Numbered from the stretch's first letter, positions 10,691-21,370 are shown. The stretch is 50,194 bases of DNA from Candidatus Peribacteria bacterium (GCA_903854455.1 CAINWJ010000010.1:1-50194); one strand, 5' to 3'. A program made the numbers and translations. Notes: generated by a model not told the origin, from the letters alone.

Positions 10691-10697
10691 TGCCATC

Positions 10698-10747
10698 GTA
10701 GAGACGCCCCGCCGGGGCGTCTCTACCTGCGGGGCAGCAGCCCCGCG
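10698..10747. repeat. 29-nt perfect palindrome GTAGAGACGCCCCGCCGGGGCGTCTCTAC followed by hairpin GCGGGGC-agca-GCCCCGC
   Basis: Palindrome at 10698-10726 and second hairpin at 10727-10747, immediately after the P4 stop. Related copies lie at 14228-14292, 16006-16098 and 42842-42864. Confidence 0.8.
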
Positions 10748-10763
10748 CTACATTCATTCATTT

Positions 10764-12419
10764 ATGCCCACCTGCCTCCATTGCTCATCGGCATTCAATA
10801 TTACTTCCGAGGACCAGCGCTTCCTGGATCTCTTCGCAGTTCCTGCACCGAAGAGCTGTCCGACCTGCAGATTGCAGCGCCGCCTCTGCGAGCGGAATAC
10901 GCGGAGTCTCTACTATCGAAAATGCGATCTGACCGGGAAGCAGATCATCGCGCAGTACAATCCCGAGTGCCCGTTTCCGGTCTACGGCGTGGATGCATTC
11001 ATGGGGGACGGTTGGAGCGGATTGACGTATGGCCGCGACGTCGATTTCAACCGACCGTTCTTCCATCAGTTCAAAGAATTGACGGCTGTGGTCCCGCATC
11101 TTGCATTATTCAATACGCCGGGAACGCTGGAAAACAGCGACTACAATAACTGCACCGGCTACATCAAGAACTGCTACCTGATCTCTGAGAGCGACATCTG
11201 TGAGGATTGTTACTACTCGAATTTGCTCAAGAAGTGCAAGAACGTCGTTGATTGTTCCGTCTGCTACGAGTGTGAGCGATGTTATGAATGCATCGATTGC
11301 GTCGGATGCCAGATGCTCCGTGGCAGTCAGGATTGTCAGCAGTGCAGTGACAGCTTCTTCCTCTTCAATTGTCAGGGTTGTAGCAACTGCATCGGTTGCA
11401 TCAACCAGCGGCACAAGCAGTACATGATCTGGAATGAGCAGTACTCGAAAGAGGATTACGAACGGAAGAAGGCGGAACTTGGATTGAATGGGCGATCAGG
11501 ATTGAAATCGGTACTGCAACGTGCGGAAGCATTCTTCGAGTCACATCCGCACCGTGCGTTGTTGATTGAGCGAGCGGAAAGCTGCACCGGCGATCGCATC
11601 TACGATTCAAAAAATGCCGTGAACTGCTTCGACGTGAAGGACATCGAAGATTGCCGGCACTGCCAGAAAATTTCCTTGAGCTGCAAGTCCTGCATGGACT
11701 TCAATTCGTGGGGGCAGAATAGCGAGCTTGTGTACCAGTGTTCCGCTTGTGGCGACCGCACTTACAATGCGAAATTTTGCTCGACATGCATCACAGTTAC
11801 GAACGCGGAATATTCATTCGAATGCTTCCACTGCAAGGACATCTTCGGATGTGTGGGTCTGAAAGGTCAGCAGTACTGTATTTTCAATAAACAGTATTCC
11901 AAGGATGAGTACGAGGCATTGCGCTCAAAGCTGATTGATCACATGCGTCAACTCGGCGAGTACGGCGAATATTTCCCGATGGATCTCTGCCCCTTTGCCT
12001 ACAATGAATCCTTCGCGCCGGATCTCTTTCCGATGACGAAAGAAGAAGTAATCAAGTGTGGATGGAGATGGTATGAAGATCATGAGAGTGACGAGCGGTA
12101 CATGGGTGCGCACATTGATCTACCGGAGACGATTGCCGATGTGAAGAAGGGCGTATCGAAGCAAATTCTGCTCTGCGAAGTCTCCAAGAAGCCGTACAAG
12201 ATTATTCCCCAGGAGCTAGCGTTCTACCGATCGATGGACATTCCTGCTCCGGCACTTTGTCCTGATGAACGTCACCGGCGGCGGATGGCGAAGCGAAATC
12301 CCTACAGACTGTGGCAGAGGAATTGTGGGAAGTGTTCGAAAGAGATTGAAACGACATACTCGCCGGAGAGACCTGAGCAGATTTTCTGCGATGATTGTTA
12401 CCTAACAACTGTTTATTGA
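10764..12419 (+). CDS. Cys-rich zinc-ribbon/Cys-repeat protein, array paralog P5
   Basis: MPTCLHCSSAFNITSEDQRFLDLF... starts at the ATG at 10764. The ORF-track start at 10617 overlaps P4 and translates the palindromic repeats (ETPRRGVS). Collinear with the family. Confidence 0.88.
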   Translation: MPTCLHCSSAFNITSEDQRFLDLFAVPAPKSCPTCRLQRRLCERNTRSLYYRKCDLTGKQIIAQYNPECPFPVYGVDAFMGDGWSGLTYGRDVDFNRPFFHQFKELTAVVPHLALFNTPGTLENSDYNNCTGYIKNCYLISESDICEDCYYSNLLKKCKNVVDCSVCYECERCYECIDCVGCQMLRGSQDCQQCSDSFFLFNCQGCSNCIGCINQRHKQYMIWNEQYSKEDYERKKAELGLNGRSGLKSVLQRAEAFFESHPHRALLIERAESCTGDRIYDSKNAVNCFDVKDIEDCRHCQKISLSCKSCMDFNSWGQNSELVYQCSACGDRTYNAKFCSTCITVTNAEYSFECFHCKDIFGCVGLKGQQYCIFNKQYSKDEYEALRSKLIDHMRQLGEYGEYFPMDLCPFAYNESFAPDLFPMTKEEVIKCGWRWYEDHESDERYMGAHIDLPETIADVKKGVSKQILLCEVSKKPYKIIPQELAFYRSMDIPAPALCPDERHRRRMAKRNPYRLWQRNCGKCSKEIETTYSPERPEQIFCDDCYLTTVY

Positions 12420-12429
12420 TTCATTCTCC

Positions 12430-12445
12430 GCGGAAAGCATTCCGC
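12430..12445 (+). terminator. short hairpin GCGGAA-agca-TTCCGC after P5
   Basis: Read directly. It has the same AGCA loop as the GCGGGGC-agca-GCCCCGC hairpins. No T-tract follows. Confidence 0.25.
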
Positions 12446-12462
12446 TCCCTTGTCAGAAAGTT

Positions 12463-14133
12463 ATGACCATTTGCACTCATTGCTCATCGGCATTCGGAAT
12501 CACGGATCAGGATCTGAAATTCTACGACGACGTATCGCCGGTGTTTGCCGGGAAGAAAGAATTGATCCCGCCGCCAACTCTCTGTCCATCCTGCCGCATG
12601 CAACGACGACTGATGTTCCGGAATGATCTCTGTTTGTATCACCGCAAATCGGATCTCACCGGCAAGGCGATGATTTCCATGTACGCACAGGACAAACCGT
12701 ACAAGGTTTACGACCAGGACGAGTGGTGGAGCGATCAGTGGGATGAGCTCTCGTATGGTCGTGACTTCGATTTCTCGCGGACGTTCACCGAGCAGTTTAG
12801 GGAGCTCAACCTGGCAGTTCCGCATCAGGGGCTCTTCACGACGAACGCGGAGAATAGCTACTACACCAACCATTCACTCAACACGAAGAACTGCTACCTG
12901 ATCGCCGGTGCGACGAATCTGGAGGATTGCCTCTTCGGCCGCTTCGTTATCGGTGGCAACGATGTGGTCGACGGCTTGTCGCTCTATGGGTGCAAGTGGT
13001 GTTACGAAGGCATCGCTTCTCAACAGTGCTACCAGTGCATGTTTTTCCGCCATTCGCGCGATTGCAGCAGCTGCCTCGTGATCGACGATTGCCAGTCCTG
13101 CAAGAATTGCTGCATGTGCTTTGGGCTCAAGAGCAAAGAGTATTGTTATTTGAATGAGCAGCTGACCAAAGATGAGTATGAGCAGCGTATTCAGAAGCAT
13201 TTGCCGCTGACGCCGGATGGCATCAATGTGATGCGCAGGCAATTGTCTGAACTTTCGATCAAGTTGCCGCACCGCGCACTTCATGTATTCAGCAGCGAAG
13301 ATTGCACCGGTGATATGGTGTTCAACAGTCAGCAATGCGAAGATTGTTATGACTGTACAGACTCTCAGGATTGCAAGTATGTGAGCAATGCGCCGAAAAG
13401 CAAAAACAGTCAGGATGCGAATTACGCCGCGCCGGATGGCGTGGAGTGGTGCTACAACGTCAACTCGAGTGTCGGCTCACAGCGCGTCATGGGGGTGTTC
13501 CTCTGCTGGTACGGTTCCGATGAGTACTATGTTCGCGAGTGTCACCGTAGCTCGAATCTTTTTGGTTGCATCAGTATGCGACACAAGGAGTACTGCATCT
13601 TAAACAAGCAGTATTCCAAAGAAGAATATGAAACATTAGTGCCGAAGATCATTGAGCACATGCGGAAAACAGGGGAGTGGGGCGATTACCTCCATCCGAG
13701 TCTTTCGACTATGGGGTACAACGAAACGCTTGCTCAGGAATATTTTCCGATTATGAAAGAGGAAGCGATTGCGAACGGTTGGCAGTGGCACGACGAAGAG
13801 GATTCCAAGGAGCAGTACCTGGGTCCCGATCATAAGATTCCGGAGAGCATTGCGGATGTTCCCGATGACATCACCAAGCAGATTCTGCGGTGCGAGGTCA
13901 CCGGCAAACCGTACAAGGTCATCCCGCAGGAGCTGAAGTTTTACCGTTCCATGGGGATCCCGATTCCGCGGAAGTGTCCCGAGCAGCGGCACAAGGAACG
14001 TCTGGCAATGCGGAATCCGAGGAGATTGTGGAAGCGGGAATGTGCAAAATGTCAGAAAGAAATAGAGACGACGTACCATCCTTCGCGACCTGAAACTGTT
14101 TATTGTGAATCATGTTATCTCAACAATTTATGA
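12463..14133 (+). CDS. Cys-rich zinc-ribbon/Cys-repeat protein, array paralog P6
   Basis: 556 aa, collinear with the family. The N-terminal module is the most degenerate (RKSDLTGKAMIS...KVYDQDEWW). Confidence 0.9.
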   Translation: MTICTHCSSAFGITDQDLKFYDDVSPVFAGKKELIPPPTLCPSCRMQRRLMFRNDLCLYHRKSDLTGKAMISMYAQDKPYKVYDQDEWWSDQWDELSYGRDFDFSRTFTEQFRELNLAVPHQGLFTTNAENSYYTNHSLNTKNCYLIAGATNLEDCLFGRFVIGGNDVVDGLSLYGCKWCYEGIASQQCYQCMFFRHSRDCSSCLVIDDCQSCKNCCMCFGLKSKEYCYLNEQLTKDEYEQRIQKHLPLTPDGINVMRRQLSELSIKLPHRALHVFSSEDCTGDMVFNSQQCEDCYDCTDSQDCKYVSNAPKSKNSQDANYAAPDGVEWCYNVNSSVGSQRVMGVFLCWYGSDEYYVRECHRSSNLFGCISMRHKEYCILNKQYSKEEYETLVPKIIEHMRKTGEWGDYLHPSLSTMGYNETLAQEYFPIMKEEAIANGWQWHDEEDSKEQYLGPDHKIPESIADVPDDITKQILRCEVTGKPYKVIPQELKFYRSMGIPIPRKCPEQRHKERLAMRNPRRLWKRECAKCQKEIETTYHPSRPETVYCESCYLNNL

Positions 14134-14165
14134 CAACTATAGTCAGGTCGCTTCGGACGGCAGGC

Positions 14166-14225
14166 GCACCCGAGAGGACGGAGAGTGTGTATTGCGAACA
14201 ATGTTATTTGGCCTCCGTCTATTAA
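14166..14225 (+). pseudogene. fossil 3' end (last ~19 codons plus stop) of a Cys-rich paralog
   Basis: gca ccc gag agg acg gag agt gtg tat tgc gaa caa tgt tat ttg gcc tcc gtc tat taa translates to APERTESVYCEQCYLASVY*. This is nearly the same as the real P7 end (SPERPESVYCEQCYLAAVY*, 15940-15998). It lies 30 nt after the P6 stop with no gene body attached. Confidence 0.75.
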
Positions 14226-14227
14226 TG

Positions 14228-14292
14228 CTGCGGGGCAGCAGCCCCGCGTTTATCTCCATTCATTATCTCGAAGACGCCCCGGCGGGGCGTCT
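14228..14292. repeat. junction repeat unit: GCGGGGC-agca-GCCCCGC hairpin, spacer, then AGACGCCCCGGCGGGGCGTCT palindrome
   Basis: Near-identical to 16034-16098. Confidence 0.8.
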
Positions 14293-14309
14293 CTACACCA
14301 CCCAACGTA

Positions 14310-15998
14310 ATGCCCACCTGCCCTCACTGCCAATCGGCGTTCGAGATTGCCAAAGACGATCTCGCGTTCTATGCAAAGGTCTCACCGATCTTCAATGGAA
14401 AGAAGGAGCTGATTCCGCCGCCGACGTTGTGTCCGGACTGCAGAATGCAGAAGCGCATGTTGTGGAGGAACGAGCGCAGCATTCATCGGTCTTCCTGTCG
14501 TATCTGCAAGCGATCAATGATATCGCAATATGTCCCCGAGTCGCCACATGTTGCGGTTTGCGCAGACTGTTTCTGGTCCAAACGGTGCGATCCACTCGCC
14601 GCCGGACGTCCCTTCGATCAGTCGCATTCGTTTTTCTCCCAGTTCCTGGAATTGCTTCAGACTGCGCCGCTTGTCGCGCTGATCAACACAAATGCACAGG
14701 CCTCGGAATACTGCCATCGGATCTACAACGGCCGGAACAACTACCTTTCATTCATCGCGCTCTATGAACCGGAGAACCTGCTTCACACCTACCACACCGT
14801 CGCGTGCAAAGACTGCACGGATGTCAGCGTCAATCATCACTGTGAACTCTGCTACGAGACCGTGGATGCCGATGACTCCTACAATTGCCGGTACTCGAGA
14901 CGTATCCGCAACTGCCGCGATTCCGCTTTTCTGGAAGATTGCATCGGGTGCAGCAATTGCATCGGGTGCAAGAACCTCCACCAGCGTCAGAACTGTCTTT
15001 TTAATGAGCAGAGGACTCCCGCTGACATTGAGGCATTCAGGGCATCCATGGAGATGGAAACCGTATCCGGCATTAGCTCTCTCCGGGGGCAGGCGGAAGA
15101 ATTCTTCCGGATGCTCCCGAACCGACCAGCTTTGAGGGTAAATTGCGAGAGCGTCTCGGGGGCATACGTCACCAATTGCAAGAATTGTACGGACGTGTAC
15201 GACCTGTTCGAGTGTGAGGAGCTGCGACATTCTTCGCAAGCGGAACGAAGCCATCATTGCATGGATTGCTACGGTATGAACTCCGCGTCCTTCTGCTATG
15301 AAGGCATTACGTACGGCGTGGACGGATGCCAGAACCTCCTCTTCTCTGCCGCGACTTTGAGTGGATGCCACAACCTTCTGTACTGCTACGATTGTTACGC
15401 CGGGACGCATGATTGTTTCGGATGTGTGGGGCTCATCAAACAGAGCTACTGCATCCTCAACAAGCAGTACTCCAAGGAAGAATATGAGGAATTGGTACCG
15501 AGGATTATTGAACGGATGCGACAGGCCGGTGAGTGGGGACAATTTTTCCCCGTGCACCTGAGTCCGTTTGCCTACAACGAATCCGTTGCGCAGGACTATT
15601 TTCCGCTTACGAAGGAAGATGCTGGAAAGTTCGGTTGGCAGTGGCGGGATCAAAAAGATGATATTCCGAAAGTCGAACGGATTGTTTCCGGTGCGCAGTT
15701 GCCAGATTCGATCGACGAGACTCCGGACGATATTCTCAATTGGGCCATCGAGTGTGAGGTGACGAAGCGTCCGTTCAAAATTATCCGTCAGGAACTCGAT
15801 TTCCATCGGAGGATGAGGCTACCTCTTCCCCGGCTGCATCCTGATGAACGTTATCGGAGAAGAATGGCACAGAGAAATCCACGGCACCTCTGGAAGCGGA
15901 AATGCGGGAAGTGCGGTACGGAGATCGAGACGACGTATTCCCCGGAACGGCCGGAGAGCGTGTATTGCGAACAATGTTATCTTGCTGCGGTTTATTGA
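14310..15998 (+). CDS. Cys-rich zinc-ribbon/Cys-repeat protein, array paralog P7
   Basis: 562 aa. The N-terminal module has all four distal Cys (SSCRICKRSMIS...VAVCADCFW). The C-terminal module is of the HPDERYRRR type. Confidence 0.9.
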   Translation: MPTCPHCQSAFEIAKDDLAFYAKVSPIFNGKKELIPPPTLCPDCRMQKRMLWRNERSIHRSSCRICKRSMISQYVPESPHVAVCADCFWSKRCDPLAAGRPFDQSHSFFSQFLELLQTAPLVALINTNAQASEYCHRIYNGRNNYLSFIALYEPENLLHTYHTVACKDCTDVSVNHHCELCYETVDADDSYNCRYSRRIRNCRDSAFLEDCIGCSNCIGCKNLHQRQNCLFNEQRTPADIEAFRASMEMETVSGISSLRGQAEEFFRMLPNRPALRVNCESVSGAYVTNCKNCTDVYDLFECEELRHSSQAERSHHCMDCYGMNSASFCYEGITYGVDGCQNLLFSAATLSGCHNLLYCYDCYAGTHDCFGCVGLIKQSYCILNKQYSKEEYEELVPRIIERMRQAGEWGQFFPVHLSPFAYNESVAQDYFPLTKEDAGKFGWQWRDQKDDIPKVERIVSGAQLPDSIDETPDDILNWAIECEVTKRPFKIIRQELDFHRRMRLPLPRLHPDERYRRRMAQRNPRHLWKRKCGKCGTEIETTYSPERPESVYCEQCYLAAVY

Positions 15999-16005
15999 TT
16001 TTTTT

Positions 16006-16098
16006 GTAGAGACGCCCGATCGGGCGTCTCTACCTGCGGGGCAGCAGCCCCGCGTTTATCTTCATTCATTATCTCGAAGACGCCCCGGCGGGGCGTCT
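16006..16098. repeat. junction repeat unit: palindrome GTAGAGACGCCCGATCGGGCGTCTCTAC, GCGGGGC-agca-GCCCCGC hairpin, and second palindrome AGACGCCCCGGCGGGGCGTCT
   Basis: Elements at 16006-16033, 16034-16054 and 16078-16098, read directly. Confidence 0.8.
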
Positions 16099-16115
16099 CT
16101 ACACCACCCAACGTT

Positions 16116-17771
16116 ATGCCCACCTGCCCCCACTGCCAATCGGCATTCGAGATCACGCCTGATGATCTTGCATTTTATGAGAAGGTATCACCAATATTTA
16201 ATGGTAAGAAAGAATTGATTCCACCGCCGACGCTGTGTCCGTCTTGTCGTCAGCAGCGACGACTGGCATTCCGAAATGAACGCTGCCTCTACCATCGTAA
16301 ATGTGATTTGACTGGCAGACAGATGGTCACGATGTACTCGCCGGACAAGCAGTACAAAATTTACGATCAGGAGGCATGGTGGAGCGACAACTGGGATCCG
16401 CTGGCTTCCGGTCGTGAGTACGATCCAGCCAAATCGTTCTTTGCCCAGTTCGATGAACTCTTCCACAGCGCACCGCGGATCAGTCTCATCAACATGGAGC
16501 ACGAGAACGCGGAGTACTGCAATTTCGCGCTCAAGAACAAGAATGCGTATCTGCTCTTCACGTCGGCAGAGTGTGAAGATTCTTTCTATATGAACCGGTC
16601 ATGGAGAAGTAAGAACTGTGCGGATTGCTCCAGTCTGGAAGATGGTGAGCTGTGTTACGAGGTCATCAATTCCGATCATTGCTACAACTGTCAGTACCTC
16701 CAAAATTGTGCCAACTGCTCGGATTGTTACCTCGGATACAACCTTCACGGGTGCAAGAATTGCTTTGCGTGCTACGGTTTGACGAATGCGTCCTACTGCA
16801 TCGGCAACAAGAAGTTTGAGAAGGAGGAATATGAGCGGACCGTTGCCTTGCTCAGGCAGGATCTTCGGTCGGTGCGGAATAATTTCGAGGAGCAGAAGCG
16901 GACGCAGCCGCGGAAGTACATGGACTGCATCAACGCTGACGGTTGCACAGGAAATGCGATCAGTCATTCCAAGCACGCATTGAATTGTTTCGAAGTGATG
17001 AACGTGGAGGACTGCAACTATGCCTGCAATGCGACATTCATGAAGGATGCGTACGACATCGACAACGATGATCATTCCGAACTCGTCTACGAAGCAGTCG
17101 GGAGCGAAACCAATTCCATGCATGCGTTCAACGACATCTGTTGGTTCAACCGTGAAGTGTTGTATTCCAGCCTCTGCTTCCGCTGCAAGAACTGTTTCGG
17201 GTGCATCGGGCTCAGGCACAAGCAATACTGCATCCTCAATAAGCAGTACACGAAAGAGGAGTACGAGAAACTGGTGCCGAAGATCATTGAACGCATGAGG
17301 AAGGATAAGGAGTGGGGTGAATTTTTCCCGGTCAGCATTTCTCCGTTCGGCTACAACGAGACGATGGCGCAGGAGTTAAATCCACTGACGAAGGACCAGG
17401 TTCTGGCACTGGGATGGAAGTGGTTTGAAGATGATAATTCGAAGGATCAGTACCTGGGTCCGTTGTACGAAATCCCCGATGCCATCGCCGATGTTCCCGA
17501 TGACATCACGAAGCAGATTTTGCGCTGCTCCGTCACCGGCAAGCCGTACAAAATCATCCCGCAGGAATTGAAATTCTATCGGGACCTGAACATTCCGATC
17601 CCGCGGAAATGCCCTGATCAAAGGCACAAGGAGCGCATCGCCTTGCGGAATCCGAGGAAGTTGTGGGATCGGCAGTGTGCCAAGTGCCGGAAGGCGATTG
17701 TAACCAGTTATTCTCCGGAGAGACCGGAGCAAGTGTTGTGTGAGGAGTGTTATTTGAGAGAAGTGTACTAA
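16116..17771 (+). CDS. Cys-rich zinc-ribbon/Cys-repeat protein, array paralog P8
   Basis: 551 aa. The first ~13 codons are nearly identical in DNA to P7. The N-terminal module is degenerate (RKCDLTGRQMVT...KIYDQEAWW). The C-terminal module is of the PRKCPDQRHKER type. Confidence 0.9.
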   Translation: MPTCPHCQSAFEITPDDLAFYEKVSPIFNGKKELIPPPTLCPSCRQQRRLAFRNERCLYHRKCDLTGRQMVTMYSPDKQYKIYDQEAWWSDNWDPLASGREYDPAKSFFAQFDELFHSAPRISLINMEHENAEYCNFALKNKNAYLLFTSAECEDSFYMNRSWRSKNCADCSSLEDGELCYEVINSDHCYNCQYLQNCANCSDCYLGYNLHGCKNCFACYGLTNASYCIGNKKFEKEEYERTVALLRQDLRSVRNNFEEQKRTQPRKYMDCINADGCTGNAISHSKHALNCFEVMNVEDCNYACNATFMKDAYDIDNDDHSELVYEAVGSETNSMHAFNDICWFNREVLYSSLCFRCKNCFGCIGLRHKQYCILNKQYTKEEYEKLVPKIIERMRKDKEWGEFFPVSISPFGYNETMAQELNPLTKDQVLALGWKWFEDDNSKDQYLGPLYEIPDAIADVPDDITKQILRCSVTGKPYKIIPQELKFYRDLNIPIPRKCPDQRHKERIALRNPRKLWDRQCAKCRKAIVTSYSPERPEQVLCEECYLREVY

Positions 17772-18223
17772 TCTCTTACCTCCTCTGTCACAACAATCCC
17801 TCGTTCTCTTGCGATACGCAATACTTCGTCTAGAACATGTCGTGTTACACAATGATGCCTATCGGTATGGTGTTCTTGGTTCTGAGCATCAACATGTATG
17901 TGTAAGTATTCTTCATCGGCTGACTCTTCTTCCTGCGAAATGGAGAAGTAGCGTGTTTCTGCTGTTGGCGATCGATCGTTTCGCACGGTGCTACTGGGAA
18001 CACTTTGAATACATTCAGGGTTGGCATCGCTTACAAGAAATATTTTTTTGAGGAGCAGGGCAACAGACTCTTTTATGCTTAGGACTGCCTCATCGGAGCC
18101 AATTAATCCATATCCAATCGTGATAATGGTCAAGCCATGAGCTCTCTCTGCGACTATTCCAGGGACGTTTGATTGCATAGGATATGCGAGTGTGGTTGCA
18201 TTTTTTGTTGTAGCCAACACCAC
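17768..18223 (-). CDS. hypothetical protein (151 aa), no motif recognised
   Basis: It is the only sizeable ORF in the 17.8-18.2 kb gap and is convergent with P8. No family recognised, and the true start is uncertain. Confidence 0.35.
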   Translation of the reverse strand: MVLATTKNATTLAYPMQSNVPGIVAERAHGLTIITIGYGLIGSDEAVLSIKESVALLLKKIFLVSDANPECIQSVPSSTVRNDRSPTAETRYFSISQEEESADEEYLHIHVDAQNQEHHTDRHHCVTRHVLDEVLRIARERGIVVTEEVRD

Positions 18224-18234
18224 ACCACTGTCGC

Positions 18235-18240
18235 TATAAT
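18235..18240 (+). promoter_or_regulatory. -10 TATAAT 6 nt upstream of the trmB-like copy 3 start (possible leaderless transcript)
   Basis: tcgcTATAATgactacATG. Confidence 0.3.
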
Positions 18241-18246
18241 GACTAC

Positions 18247-19005
18247 ATGTCCGCCTCCCTCTTCGAAGAACTGGGTCTGAGCCCCAACGAAGCCAAGATC
18301 TACGACACGCTCATCACGTACGGCGGATCGGGGGTTTCGACGATCGCGCTGCGGGCAAAAGTGCATCGCAGCAACGCCTACGACGCACTCCGACGGCTCA
18401 TCGAGAAAGGGATGGTTCACGAGGTATTGGGGCAGCGGGAGACCATCTACGAACCCGTGGATCCGGTGAAGTTCAAGGAGCTACTGGCCGAGAAGATGCA
18501 GAAGTTCGAGGATGCGCTGCCGCAGATGGCACGGCACTTCCTCTCGCACCGGACAGCCGAGCGAGTCTCGGTCTACCGCGGGCTCGAGGGTGTCAAGAAC
18601 TACATGCGATTGGCGCTTCAGACCGGCGAAGACATCTTTACTCTTGGCGGGAAGTGCGCATGGCTGGATCCTCGTCTGAAATCATTCACGGAACATTTCT
18701 CGAAGGAGATGCGCAAGCGGAAAATGCAGAAACTGAGCCTCTTCGATGTGTCAGTGAAGGATCAGTGCCCCGCATCGATGCTACGAACCGTGGCCACGCA
18801 GTGGAAGTTTTTGCCGGAAGGGCATGCCACGCACTCCGCGGTTGATGTGTTTGGTGGGTACGTGGTGACGTTTACCGGAATGGATGTGCAGAAGCTTGGC
18901 GATGATCTGACACTGTTCGTGCTTGCAAGCGAGGATTTGGCGGAGGACTTCCGTGCGTGGTGGAATCTTATTTGGGATTTGATGCCGGGCAAAGCCAGGA
19001 AGTGA
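18247..19005 (+). CDS. TrmB-family winged-HTH transcriptional regulator (copy 3)
   Basis: MSASLFEELGLSPNEAKIYDTLITYGGSGVSTIALRAKVHRSNAYDALRRLIEKGMV. Confidence 0.8.
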   Translation: MSASLFEELGLSPNEAKIYDTLITYGGSGVSTIALRAKVHRSNAYDALRRLIEKGMVHEVLGQRETIYEPVDPVKFKELLAEKMQKFEDALPQMARHFLSHRTAERVSVYRGLEGVKNYMRLALQTGEDIFTLGGKCAWLDPRLKSFTEHFSKEMRKRKMQKLSLFDVSVKDQCPASMLRTVATQWKFLPEGHATHSAVDVFGGYVVTFTGMDVQKLGDDLTLFVLASEDLAEDFRAWWNLIWDLMPGKARK

Positions 19006-19126
19006 TCGTTGAATGGGTTGCTTGCGGGTCGTCAGGCACGTTCTTGAGGCATTAAAAAACCCCATGGAAAAATCCCTCATTCTCCGCTATAATTAGCTAT
19101 CAGGGCTACTATTTCCCTGATCATGC

Positions 19127-21370
19127 ATGGCCAATGATCTTCGCTACTTTCACGTGGTGGTGCCGCAAGGCACGGAGGGGAATACAAAGCTGGAATCCAA
19201 GTTCCAGGAACTGCTCATAAACATGCGCAATACGTTTACCGGCAAGCGCGTGTCGCTGGAGTTCTTCGGGATGGGTCAGTACACGTACTTCTTCATCGTC
19301 GTGGAGGAGAAATTGCTGGAAACCGTGGAAGGGCTTGTCTACGCCTCGTTTCCGGATGCTGAGGTGAAGGAAACGCAGGACTACACATTGCAGTACGATC
19401 CCGCGCACCTGGGGTTTGCGGGTGCCACTGTCACACTCCATCACTCGGACATCTATCCCATCAAGACGTACGACATGTTCGAGGAAGATTCCGCGACGCG
19501 CATCTTCTCCGTTATTTCCAAGATTCCATCCGGTGATCAGGTCTGGGTCCAGATGATCGCGGAGCCGCAGGATGATACGGCGCTCTACCACCTCATCCGG
19601 AAGTTCAGGATCCGTGTTGCCGACTTCATGCACTTCTTCTCCATCCGCGACCGGATGCGACCGGGCGGCAGGGCGAGCATCCAGCCGGTCCGTCACAAGC
19701 GGGCGCATGAGAAGATGGAGATCAAGCCGTACACGGTGAGTATCCGCTGCGCCTACCTGAGTCCGGACAAAGCTTCCGCAAGCCGCAAACTGGCAGCGGT
19801 CACGAGCAGCTTCTCGCAGTTCAATGATCGCGACATCAACGAATTTCATGGTCACGAAACCAAGAATCCCGCCAAGTTCGTGGCGCAGTATCGTTCCCGC
19901 AAACATGCAACGTCGTACGTTCTGAGTGCCAAGGAAGTCGCAACCCTCTACCACTTCCCGAACGCGGACGTCGTGCCGCACATCGTGCACGTGCTCGCCC
20001 GCAAGTCCGAGCCGCCACAGGATTTGCCGAAGGCCGGGGAGGAGGATGTCAGTCCGTTCGGTGTCACGAACTACCACAACAACTTCGTTCCCTTCGGCAT
20101 CCGCCGCGCGGACCGCCGGCGCCATCTCTACGTCGTCGGGAAGTCCGGTTCCGGTAAAAGTAAATTGCTGGAACTGCTGATCAACGAGGATCTCAAGAAC
20201 AACGAGGGTATCGCCGTCATCGATCCGCACGGCGACCTGATCGACGCATGTCTTCGGTACGTGCCGCAGCACCGCATCAACGATGTCGTCATCTTAGATC
20301 CGAGCGACACCGAGTTCCCGATCGCCTTCAATCCACTGGAGAAAGTCGAAGACGCGTACAAGATGCAGGTGACCATCGGGTTCCTGCAGATCTTCAAGAA
20401 ACTCTTCGGCAGCAACTGGTCCGATCGTCTGGAGCACGTGCTCCGCTACACGACGCTCGCTCTCCTCGACAGTCCGAACACCACCGTGCTCTCGATTCTC
20501 AAAATGCTCACGGACAAGAACTACCGCCAGAAGATCGTCTCACGCATCAATGACTCCGTCGTGAAGAGTTTCTGGGTCAGTGAATTCGCCGCCTGGAGTG
20601 AGAAGTTCGATGCCGATGCCATCACGCCGCTGCTCAACAAGGTCGGCCAATTCGTCGCGACGAACATGATCCGCAACATGATCGGGCAGCCGGTGACCAA
20701 GTTCAACATCCGCGACATCATGGACAAGAAGAAGATCCTGCTCATGAAAGTGTCCAAGGGTTTGCTCGGCGAAGAAAACTCATCGCTCATCGGTGCGATG
20801 TTCATCACGAAGCTGTATCAGGCGGCCATGAGTAGAGCCGATACGCCGGAGGACCAGCGCACGGACTTCTACCTGTACGTCGACGAGTTCCAGAACTTCG
20901 CGACCGACACGTTCACGGAAATTCTCTCCGAGGCGCGCAAGTACCGCTTGAACCTCACTATCGCGCACCAGTACATGGGTCAGCTTAGTGACGTCGTTCG
21001 CAAGACGGTGTTCGGCAACGTCGGTTCCATGATCAACTTCCGCGTCGGCGCGGAGGACGCAGACATCCTGGCAGAGGAGTATAACCCGATCTTCAAGGAA
21101 CGCGACATCATCAACCTCGGCATTCGCGAGTTCTACCTCAAGATGTCCGTGAGCGGTGAACTGCGCGAGGCATTCTCCGGCAGAACGCTGGATGCACCAC
21201 GACCGAAGGCAGACTGGACGCAGGCGTGCATCGAGCAGTCGCGACGGAAGTACTGCATGCCGAAGGCGGACGTCGAGACGATGCTCAAGCAGTGGGATGA
21301 AGCGGCGAGCGCACCGCCGAAGGAGGATGAGATGGATCCGGAGCAGGTGTTCGAGGAGCCGATTATTTAG
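19127..21370 (+). CDS. TraD/VirD4/TraG-like P-loop ATPase (type IV coupling-protein-like) with an uncharacterised ~330-aa N-terminal domain and no TM segment seen
   Basis: Walker A YVVGKSGSGKSKLLELLI and Walker B-like FYLYVDEFQNFAT, followed by LTIAHQYMGQL. This motif order is typical of coupling-protein/TraD-like ATPases. Confidence 0.75.
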   Translation: MANDLRYFHVVVPQGTEGNTKLESKFQELLINMRNTFTGKRVSLEFFGMGQYTYFFIVVEEKLLETVEGLVYASFPDAEVKETQDYTLQYDPAHLGFAGATVTLHHSDIYPIKTYDMFEEDSATRIFSVISKIPSGDQVWVQMIAEPQDDTALYHLIRKFRIRVADFMHFFSIRDRMRPGGRASIQPVRHKRAHEKMEIKPYTVSIRCAYLSPDKASASRKLAAVTSSFSQFNDRDINEFHGHETKNPAKFVAQYRSRKHATSYVLSAKEVATLYHFPNADVVPHIVHVLARKSEPPQDLPKAGEEDVSPFGVTNYHNNFVPFGIRRADRRRHLYVVGKSGSGKSKLLELLINEDLKNNEGIAVIDPHGDLIDACLRYVPQHRINDVVILDPSDTEFPIAFNPLEKVEDAYKMQVTIGFLQIFKKLFGSNWSDRLEHVLRYTTLALLDSPNTTVLSILKMLTDKNYRQKIVSRINDSVVKSFWVSEFAAWSEKFDADAITPLLNKVGQFVATNMIRNMIGQPVTKFNIRDIMDKKKILLMKVSKGLLGEENSSLIGAMFITKLYQAAMSRADTPEDQRTDFYLYVDEFQNFATDTFTEILSEARKYRLNLTIAHQYMGQLSDVVRKTVFGNVGSMINFRVGAEDADILAEEYNPIFKERDIINLGIREFYLKMSVSGELREAFSGRTLDAPRPKADWTQACIEQSRRKYCMPKADVETMLKQWDEAASAPPKEDEMDPEQVFEEPII

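Follow-up and report, generated by a model that had tools for sequence, protein, structure and literature searches.

Diverged paralogs within one bacterial genome can exchange short segments by ectopic gene conversion and evolve in concert, as exemplified by tufA/tufB in Salmonella and by babA/babB or sabA/sabB in Helicobacter pylori. Other described systems also bear on the locus considered here: homology-facilitated illegitimate recombination, with one-sided anchoring, in natural transformation of Acinetobacter and Streptococcus pneumoniae; the repetitive extragenic palindromic (REP) elements and bacterial interspersed mosaic elements (BIMEs) of Proteobacteria, with their REP-associated tyrosine transposases (RAYTs), and the Correia elements of Neisseria; and the cassette-based antigenic variation of pilE/pilS, vlsE, msp2 and MgPar. 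Here, we analyzed a 50,194-nucleotide (nt) stretch of DNA (the window) from Candidatus Peribacteria bacterium (GCA_903854455.1, CAINWJ010000010.1:1-50194), which contains an array of eight collinear plus-strand paralogs, P1 to P8, that encode Cys-rich proteins of ~555 amino acids (aa) each. We conclude, with a probability of roughly 0.8, that at least two separate non-reciprocal homologous recombination events (i.e. ectopic gene conversions) have occurred among members of the ~30-copy family to which these genes belong. As in the tuf and bab/sab examples, short, apparently non-reciprocal tracts of near identity connect diverged paralogs, the breakpoints lie in conserved segments, identity within the genome exceeds identity between species, and mosaic genes result. 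The locus differs from those examples in its host, a member of the Candidate Phyla Radiation (CPR), and in its family, a ~30-copy, predicted cytoplasmic and Cys-rich one; in addition, one of its tracts transfers an insertion (tail, stop codon and flank) that leaves the recipient's old tail visible, whereas the other is mostly a non-coding junction with REP-like elements.

Throughout, G000 denotes the window's assembly, G001 a genome of the same genus and L037 a Logan contig that carries a P6 ortholog; contigs are given as C numbers, and the P4/P5, P6/P7 and P7/P8 junctions are termed J45, J67 and J78, respectively. One event concerns the 3' end of P6. A preliminary description of the array had reported a gene-end fragment at 14166-14225, downstream of the P6 stop, as near-identical to the end of P7 and as a relic of a P7-type junction or of another gene. 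The fragment exists and reads APERTESVYCEQCYLASVY*, but its identity to the P7 end is only 77% (46/60), as compared to 97% for the spacer that follows, and it matches the P4 end at 45/60 positions; the other family ends match at 13-41/60, most of them at 33-41. Alignment with the P6 orthologs of G001 and L037 replaces the earlier reading, as the orphan is, judged from these comparisons, P6's own ancestral terminus, displaced by an 89-nt patch. P6 and its ortholog at G001:C59:17265-18938 are 85.5% identical in aa over the whole gene apart from the end, where the window has exactly 89 extra nt (14076-14164) that are also missing from the L037 ortholog. When the patch is gapped, the orphan aligns to the true 3' end of the G001 ortholog, and a hairpin (hpB, described below) comes next in both; deleting 14076-14164 restores the frame to P6, producing ...TTY-APERTESVYCEQCYLASVY*. 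The true end of the L037 ortholog (85.6% identity) matches the orphan at 49/61 positions, the best match found anywhere, and the G001 end does so at 44/61. In L037, TAATG and hpB come directly after this end (24/25 to the window); a short linker of the CATTCA type leads from there to a C59:18975-type gene, and the palindrome block termed hpA' is missing. Among database proteins, the 16 nearest P6 orthologs (63-87% identity) all end canonically in ..PERPE.VYCE.CYL..VY, and none of the 16 contains HPSRPETVYCESCYLNNL; the canonical end is also present in three contigs of other genomes that carry a P6 ortholog, with the same hairpin directly after it in two.

The transition between ortholog-like and paralog-like sequence is visible at individual positions. 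Specifically, in the 240 nt upstream of the patch, 68 informative sites are ortholog-like and 25 resemble a paralog on contig C13. The new tail has 2 and 14 such sites, respectively, and the orphan has 14 and 7 (Fisher P = 6e-6 and 0.002). The orphan differs from the ortholog end mainly at synonymous positions (proportions of synonymous and nonsynonymous differences, pS and pN, of 0.79 and 0.12; P ~0.001 against neutrality), which argues that it served as the functional tail during most of the period after the two species separated. Small indels in the last codons of P6 relative to the C13-type donor indicate that the new tail has changed since its transfer. The grafted tail (14104-14133) ends in ...CYLNNL*, as compared to a family norm of ...CYL..VY*, and a 9-bp inverted repeat lies within the patch (14085-14093/14143-14151). 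Because the orphan is 77% and the spacer 97% identical to their counterparts, and identity changes abruptly at the hairpin (14228), these segments reflect separate events of different age; the earlier proposal of one copied tract, running from the gene end through the spacer into the next gene, is not supported. We also considered the orphan tails as targets of recoding (frameshifting or bypass) and rejected this, as the orphan is in the +2 frame at P6 and in the +1 frame at the two comparable loci described next, no start is conserved, and the linker contains an indel that changes its reading.

The new tail of P6 is most like the PSRPE-type tails of two genes in its own genome, matching the end of C13:3976-5649 at 42/47 positions and that of C18:1540-3312 at 41/47. 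The same layout of PSRPE-type tail, homologous linker and orphan tail (LERPEKIYCEECYLKEVY*) is found at G000:C13:5590-5737, and it recurs in the other species at G001:C77:47415-49070 (L010 10317-10476, minus strand). The three host genes of the patch (P6, C13 and G001:C77) have unrelated bodies, and the G000 body-ortholog of the G001:C77 gene (C36:9088-10830; 81% nt identity in the body) has a normal tail, which matches the G001:C77 orphan tail at 43/60 positions by a hand count on the alignment. The normal tail of this body-ortholog and the unrelated host bodies imply that the patch landed on different paralogs more than once. An ortholog of the C13 gene, sought in G001 as a second before/after test, was not found there (best match, 46%). 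C18 has the PSRPE tail with no orphan behind it; the flanking 3' sequence (AAAGGGTCGGGGTCAGG...) is linker-like and constitutes the 5' arm of a terminator hairpin. The original arrangement may therefore have been created when a tail with part of its terminator was joined to another paralog with no homology on the right. The 24-nt linker (GGGTCGCTACGGAGGGGCAGGTTC) is identical at 24/24 positions between G000:C13 and G001:C77, even though orthologous 4-fold sites of the two genomes are only ~50% identical, and most differences between the two orphan tails are synonymous (pS 0.95, pN 0.14). Constraint, repeated conversion or recent exchange are possible explanations for the identical linker and the synonymous bias. 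A search for the linker motif in 200 genomes of the class returned chance-level matches only.

The other event concerns the junctions on either side of P7. As the preliminary description recognized, spacer and gene start are near-identical at J67 and J78: the spacer units 14228-14308 and 16034-16114 agree at 80/81 positions, and the whole tract, which extends into the coding sequence (CDS; 14228-14347 and 16034-16153), agrees at 116/120, with mismatches at 14256, 14309, 14324 and 14339 and a within-genome BLAST E of 1e-38. The complete P7 and P8 genes are only 51% identical in nt (42% in aa), and pairwise alignment places the similarity of the junctions far above that of the gene bodies, which bears out the earlier proposal of recombination or gene conversion between paralog junctions whose gene bodies remain diverged. 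Identity in the tract also stands far above both of its flanks (77% on the left; 75% and then ~45% on the right). The strong divergence that had been described directly after the tract does set in eventually, as identity falls to a background of ~40-50% past about CDS position +120, but it is not immediate: from +40 to +119 the two genes share ~75% of their nt, encode nearly identical protein and differ mostly at synonymous sites. As other paralog pairs show 55-85% identity per 20-nt bin in this conserved N-terminal stretch, the exceptional part is the 120-nt tract only.

The full tract unit occurs at these two sites only in G000. J67 and J78 alone share its 25-nt linker, the 44-nt exact block that contains hpA' and the initial 38 nt of the CDS, so that copying between the two junctions is required irrespective of the hairpins that they contain. 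A scan for inter-paralog tracts, in which alignments of all family genes with 300-nt flanks were examined in sliding windows across the 1.33-Mb assembly, revealed no second such tract except for C10:1-87 versus C13:6927-7014 at a contig edge; an earlier self-BLAST with an 88% identity floor had missed mosaic tracts, as its high-scoring segment pairs ran into diverged flanks. C10 is the window itself, and its first 74 nt (within P1) match C13:6927-7000, at the end of that contig, at 100%, after which the paralogs diverge. This match represents either another 5' tract shared between paralogs or a fork in the assembly, and because the contig starts within a repeat, the 5' end of P1 is to be treated cautiously.

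The orthologous junctions suggest in which direction the tract moved. Downstream of the P6 ortholog, G001 and L037 both have hpB, then a linker of the CATTCA type and a start of the next gene (ATGCAACACACCTGTCCCCAATG...) that resembles the start of P7, whereas the P8 ortholog of G001 has another upstream region, which includes a hicAB-like pair, and another start (ATGAATCAGCATTGCCCTCTC), with different codons 2-6. In the window, codons 2-6 of P8 are P7-like and the gene becomes ortholog-like again from about codon 14 (ATC ACG in P8 and ATC ACC in its ortholog, as compared to ATT GCC in P7). Thus, in P8 as in P6, a paralog-like segment is bounded by ortholog-like sequence. Because hpB, linker and P7-like start are ancestral at J67 and missing at the P8 ortholog, J67 is the probable donor; the tract appears to have moved from J67 to J78, overwriting the first 6-13 codons of P8. 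J67 retains the ancestral features seen in G001 and L037, consistent with an unchanged donor. As hpA' is missing from the orthologous junctions of both, its insertion presumably took place in this lineage and preceded the copying. With four differences in 120 nt, as compared to ~20% divergence between orthologs, the tract event would be recent. Outside hpB, the G001 and L037 junctions diverge from the window more than its two copies do from each other, and by sequence comparison this excess of within-genome over between-species identity is a signature of concerted evolution.

The hairpins themselves are mobile-looking elements that must be separated from this evidence. The 29-nt palindrome hpA (GTAGAGACGCCCCGSCGGGGCGTCTCTAC) has ~36 copies in G000, and hpB (CTGCGGGGCRGCAGCCCCGCG) occupies ~25 loci in both orientations. 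Both are short and GC-rich, spread across many contigs with unrelated flanks, like REP elements, and several hpA copies sit at contig ends. Because they are dispersed genome-wide, a property that the preliminary description had not mentioned, hairpin identity alone is no evidence of copying; that evidence comes from the flanks, from the start of the CDS and from the linker, which is unique. A full palindrome of the hpA* type is present in J78 and J45 (10698-10726) and absent from J67. The shorter junction that had been noted before P5 is indeed present, as palindrome, hairpin, CATTCATT and ATGCCCACCTGCC succeed one another there and 10715-10747 is identical to 16022-16054 (33/33). hpB is also a predicted intrinsic terminator, with an 8-bp stem, a 4-nt loop and TTTATCT at 14229-14248 and 16035-16054, and in the orthologous G001 junction a compensatory change (GGGGC/GCCCC to GGGTC/GACCC) preserves its stem. 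Among seven matches to the Y1-transposase profile (Y1_Tnp, PF01797) in G000, the gene at C84:3940-4173 lies between inverted hpB-type palindromes, GCGGGGCTGCCGCCCCGC (3733) and GCGGGGCGGCAGCCCCGC (4282), so that hpB behaves like a REP element with a cognate RAYT. The RAYT/REP-like arrangement spans G000:C84:3733-4299. Two of the other matches (G000:C77:4526-5248 and C94:8457-9001) are flanked by inverted GC-rich palindrome pairs of their own, and no cognate transposase gene was found for hpA. These elements thus resemble REP, BIME and Correia elements in form, in copy number (tens), in their unrelated flanks, in their presence/absence polymorphism between homologous junctions and in the one transposase gene with inverted hpB copies; they differ in their CPR host, and their mobility is deduced from presence and absence.

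The array as a whole is mosaic when compared with its counterpart in G001. The order of slots is kept between the species, and true orthologs are ~80% identical in nt in both bodies and ends, with 44-56% identity at 4-fold sites, as compared to 37% for the paralog background. Sequence comparison indicates that the bodies of P4 and P7 have been exchanged between conserved ends. P4 and its slot-mate share 35-65% of nt in the body and 78-92% in the last 80 codons, and their 4-fold sites agree at 12/44 positions in the body and 15/22 in the tail. P7 and its slot-mate are at paralog level in the body (4-fold sites, 14/39) and 80% identical in the last 20 codons. P7 has no clear ortholog even within the genus (best match, 46%). 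As slot-mates may share their ends only, positional orthology is unreliable in these arrays. The spacers between family genes in the relatives contain a small conserved minus-strand open reading frame (ORF) of ~100-150 aa that is apparently coiled-coil-like (MANNSDITLLTILQYMQAMEERL...) and has been duplicated along with the adjacent family gene (G001:C59:14832-15242 and 16917-17264; L036:8729-9187).

Coordinates of the array genes and junction features in the window, with the corresponding genes of G001 contig C59 where assigned
Feature	Position	Strand	Description	G001:C59 position	Identity	Relation
P1	1-1632	+	5' cut
P2	1639-3321	+		176-964, partial	74% aa	ortholog
P3	4500-6182	+		1898-3682	84% aa	ortholog
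P4	9005-10690	+	body non-orthologous to slot-mate; last ~80 codons orthologous	11398-13101	49% aa	slot-mate only
P5	10767-12419	+		13176-14831	87% aa	ortholog
P6	12463-14133	+	Cys-rich, ~555 aa; last 19 codons appear foreign, PSRPE-type	17265-18938	85.5% aa	ortholog
P7	14310-15998	+	non-orthologous to relatives' gene in the same slot	18975-20645	40% aa	slot-mate only; L037 slot also holds an 18975-like gene
P8	16116-17771	+	ortholog except first ~6-13 codons	21157-22878	83% aa, about 80% nt throughout	ortholog
J45 short form	10691-10766	+	hpA, hpB, CTACATTCATTCATTT and ATG
Inserted patch, 89 nt	14076-14164	+	C-terminal 18-19 codons (HPSRPETVYCESCYLNNL), stop at 14131-14133, 31 nt of putative donor 3' flank
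Displaced original P6 3' end	14165-14225	+	out of frame behind the new stop
hpB	14228-14248	+	CTGCGGGGCAGCAGCCCCGCG; terminator-like REP hairpin; also at 16034-16054 and 10727-10747
Tract copy A	14228-14347	+	hpB, T-rich linker, hpA' with flanks, ATG and first 13 codons of P7; probably donor
hpA' block	14265-14308	+	REP-like palindrome with truncated left arm, and flanks; 44-nt exact repeat of 16071-16114
hpA*	16006-16033	+	full palindrome between P7 stop with T7 and hpB; left edge of copy B
Tract copy B	16034-16153	+	upstream of and into P8; 116/120 to copy A; probably recipient

The following events would account for these observations. In event A, an 89-nt patch would have been copied into P6 directly after the Tyr-538 codon from a paralog with a ..PSRPE..YCESCYL tail, of which the C13 and C18 genes named above are relatives. 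The patch would have brought the last ~18 codons, a stop and ~31 nt of 3' flank, such that P6 now stops at 14133 and its ancestral tail would survive untranslated, 31 nt downstream of the new stop. The donor locus type would already have consisted of new tail, linker and old tail; as this layout is homologous to the recipient on both sides (the C-terminal coding sequence and the old tail), ordinary conversion can carry the patch between paralogs. In event B, the 120-nt stretch 3' of P6 would have been copied to the upstream region of P8, replacing the first ~6-13 codons of that gene. We infer a RecA-type pathway for both events, as well as the direction of event B and the order in which they occurred. 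Homology-facilitated illegitimate recombination would explain how the structure of new tail, 31-nt foreign flank and old tail first came about: as in that process, the left end of the primary patch event lies in homologous coding sequence, while its right end would have been joined without homology, in the apparent 5' arm of the donor's terminator hairpin. Unlike the described cases, the process is invoked for the primary event only, because both ends of the P6 patch are in homologous sequence and ordinary conversion from an already-patched paralog suffices.

Other origins have to be weighed against these two conversions. That the junctions are an artefact of assembly (a mixed-strain consensus, or a chimera or mis-join caused by the repeats in the junctions) is highly improbable, even though this metagenome-assembled genome (MAG) is fragmented into 161 contigs, many of which end inside repeats, and the window itself begins with the 74 nt that recur exactly on C13. 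The tract copies differ at four spaced sites, which limits the longest exact run to 52 nt, and contigs overlap at their ends by 141 nt, so that the final k was probably 141 and thus exceeded the tract length. Moreover, the 89-nt patch and both of its joints fit into one short read, the gene order P5-P6-...-P8 is repeated in the independent assembly of the sister species (G001), and the repeat has two entries and two exits, for which the assembled path is the sole linear one that uses every edge once. A further idea, that the orphan is the remnant of a whole deleted paralog that once lay between P6 and P7, draws on the fact that arrays gain and lose members (G001 has one extra gene between its P5 and P6 orthologs) and on the 75-77% likeness of the orphan to the P7 and P4 ends. 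We rejected it, and would put its probability close to nil, because the orphan is in frame with P6 after removal of the 89 nt, its best alignment is to the true end of the P6 orthologs (49/61), and the inserted 89 nt are of the PSRPE-paralog type rather than the P6 type; the TAATG-hpB sequence after the orphan likewise matches what follows the stop of the L037 P6 ortholog.

The likeness of the junctions could also stem from independent insertion of mobile palindromes, like REP elements or miniature inverted-repeat transposable elements, or from purifying selection on a regulatory unit, rather than from recent copying. The ~36 and ~25 dispersed copies of hpA and hpB, the seven RAYT/IS200-like genes, one of them flanked by hpB copies, and the terminator pattern of hpB with its compensatory change between species are all in keeping with such an origin, which is nevertheless very unlikely, as beyond the two junctions only the 20-29-nt palindromes recur, identity between the junctions is higher within the genome than between species, and G001 and L037 lack hpA'. 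Insertion of P7 as a cassette, by single crossover of a circular intermediate or by unequal crossing-over in the junction, would yield the 120-nt direct repeats as a by-product. We consider it possible but doubtful: the two tract copies bracket P7 exactly and P7 is non-orthologous in its slot, which holds an 18975-type gene in G001 and L037, but this route needs a prior joining of the P6-downstream junction to P8 together with loss of the 18975-type gene, and neither a circular form nor a second P7 copy is seen in the assembly.

Several observations weigh against gene conversion as set out here, or narrow the ground on which it stands. RecA (PF00154) was not found in the 88%-complete G000 assembly, although it is present in G001 and in two relatives from its taxonomic family (G004 and G007), and recA and ruv have been reported for Peribacteria (PMC4736985). 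A scan of G000 for the donor of the patch revealed no identical copy, the best match reaching 89% across 47 nt and, in the linker, ~71%; the source of the patch is therefore unsampled, lost or diverged. The constraint-like orphan tails at C13 and G001:C77 are not predicted by a simple model in which displaced tails are dead relics. The direction of the tract rests on two outgroup contigs, G001:C59 and L037, and the P8 upstream region of G001 has itself been remodelled by the hicAB-like insertion. The assembly was accepted on internal evidence only. Lastly, approximately unbiased (AU) topology tests on P4 or P7 and their slot-mates, partitioned into body and tail, rejected no alternative (p = 0.56, 0.13 and 0.30), and the deep branches of the family tree are star-like; the claim of body exchange accordingly draws its support from distances and from synonymous sites rather than from conflicting trees.

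A wider reading, which we advance as speculative and on balance unlikely, is that conserved ends and REP-bearing junctions serve as portable recombination anchors that shuffle Cys-rich cores and tails, with the ~89-nt PSRPE tail and linker acting as a self-propagating end-replacement cassette. It is prompted by the presence of the cassette on three unrelated bodies in two species with the resident tail left each time, by the 24/24 linker between species whose 4-fold sites are ~50% identical, and by displaced C13 and G001:C77 tails that evolve as if protein-constrained. If true, the CPR bacterium would possess a recombination system that generates diversity in a family of intracellular proteins. 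Like the antigenic-variation cassettes, the array has variable cores between conserved ends and segments that move by conversion; unlike them, each of its copies is a complete ORF that has a start and a terminator-like hairpin of its own, and there are neither silent partial cassettes nor a single expression site. A silent-cassette variation system was rejected, since ORFs are full-length throughout and the only partial pieces are contig-edge fragments and orphan tails.

The host is a tiny uncultivated groundwater-type bacterium, and the names of homologs point to Candidatus Peribacteraceae/Peregrinibacteria within the CPR. The window is the longest of the 161 contigs of an assembly of 1.33 Mb and 53.7% GC. 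Its repeat content is unusually high for the genome size; for example, a dispersed family of ~150-200-nt repeats has >15 copies at 89-100% identity, often at contig ends (C12:3590-3756, C58:2433-2599, C97:2558-2758, C75:9199-9428 and C154:3791-3996). Within the array, P1 to P8 are 38-51% identical in aa and 49-57% in nt, and three TrmB-type regulator genes are interspersed among them. G000 contains about 27-30 full-length ORFs of the family, with their own starts in the arrays examined, G001 has ~33 copies, and same-class relatives (G000-G020 compared) have 0-54 family matches per genome; the family takes up 4-10% of the DNA in some genomes, and the 54 matches in one 0.9-Mb genome would correspond to roughly 10%. 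From their sequences, the family members are predicted to be cytoplasmic, Cys-rich zinc-ribbon proteins, present here in ~30 copies. They are annotated as hypothetical only, and Pfam and NCBIfam profiles return only sub-threshold C-terminal treble-clef zinc-finger matches. The proteins have no signal peptide, so that surface variation is not indicated. An AlphaFold2 model of P7 built on a 46-sequence alignment is confident (predicted local distance difference test, 86; predicted template modelling score, 0.83), and a fold search of the PDB with it found no significant relative (best E = 0.56). The weak matches are left-handed beta-helix proteins, which suggests that the modelled protein may have a Cys-ladder solenoid core between two zinc-ribbon-like ends. 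A literature search found no description of the family; the Cys-rich proteins described for Peribacteria are different ones, large and secreted (PMC4736985).

Taken as ectopic gene conversion in a CPR multigene family, the locus is a real, new and unusually well documented example of a known process, in which two recent recombination events can be reconstructed base by base in a Candidate Phyla Radiation genome. For annotation, the C-terminus of P6 would be a recent graft, and the ORF-like orphan fragment behind it neither a gene nor a pseudogene from another locus. REP-like palindromes and near-identical junction tracts are places where the assembly of this MAG breaks. For the family itself, the events indicate active remodelling of a very large, uncharacterised set of genes by homologous recombination despite the reduced, ~1.3-Mb genome, and the turnover of bodies between conserved ends hints that the family may be under diversifying selection.

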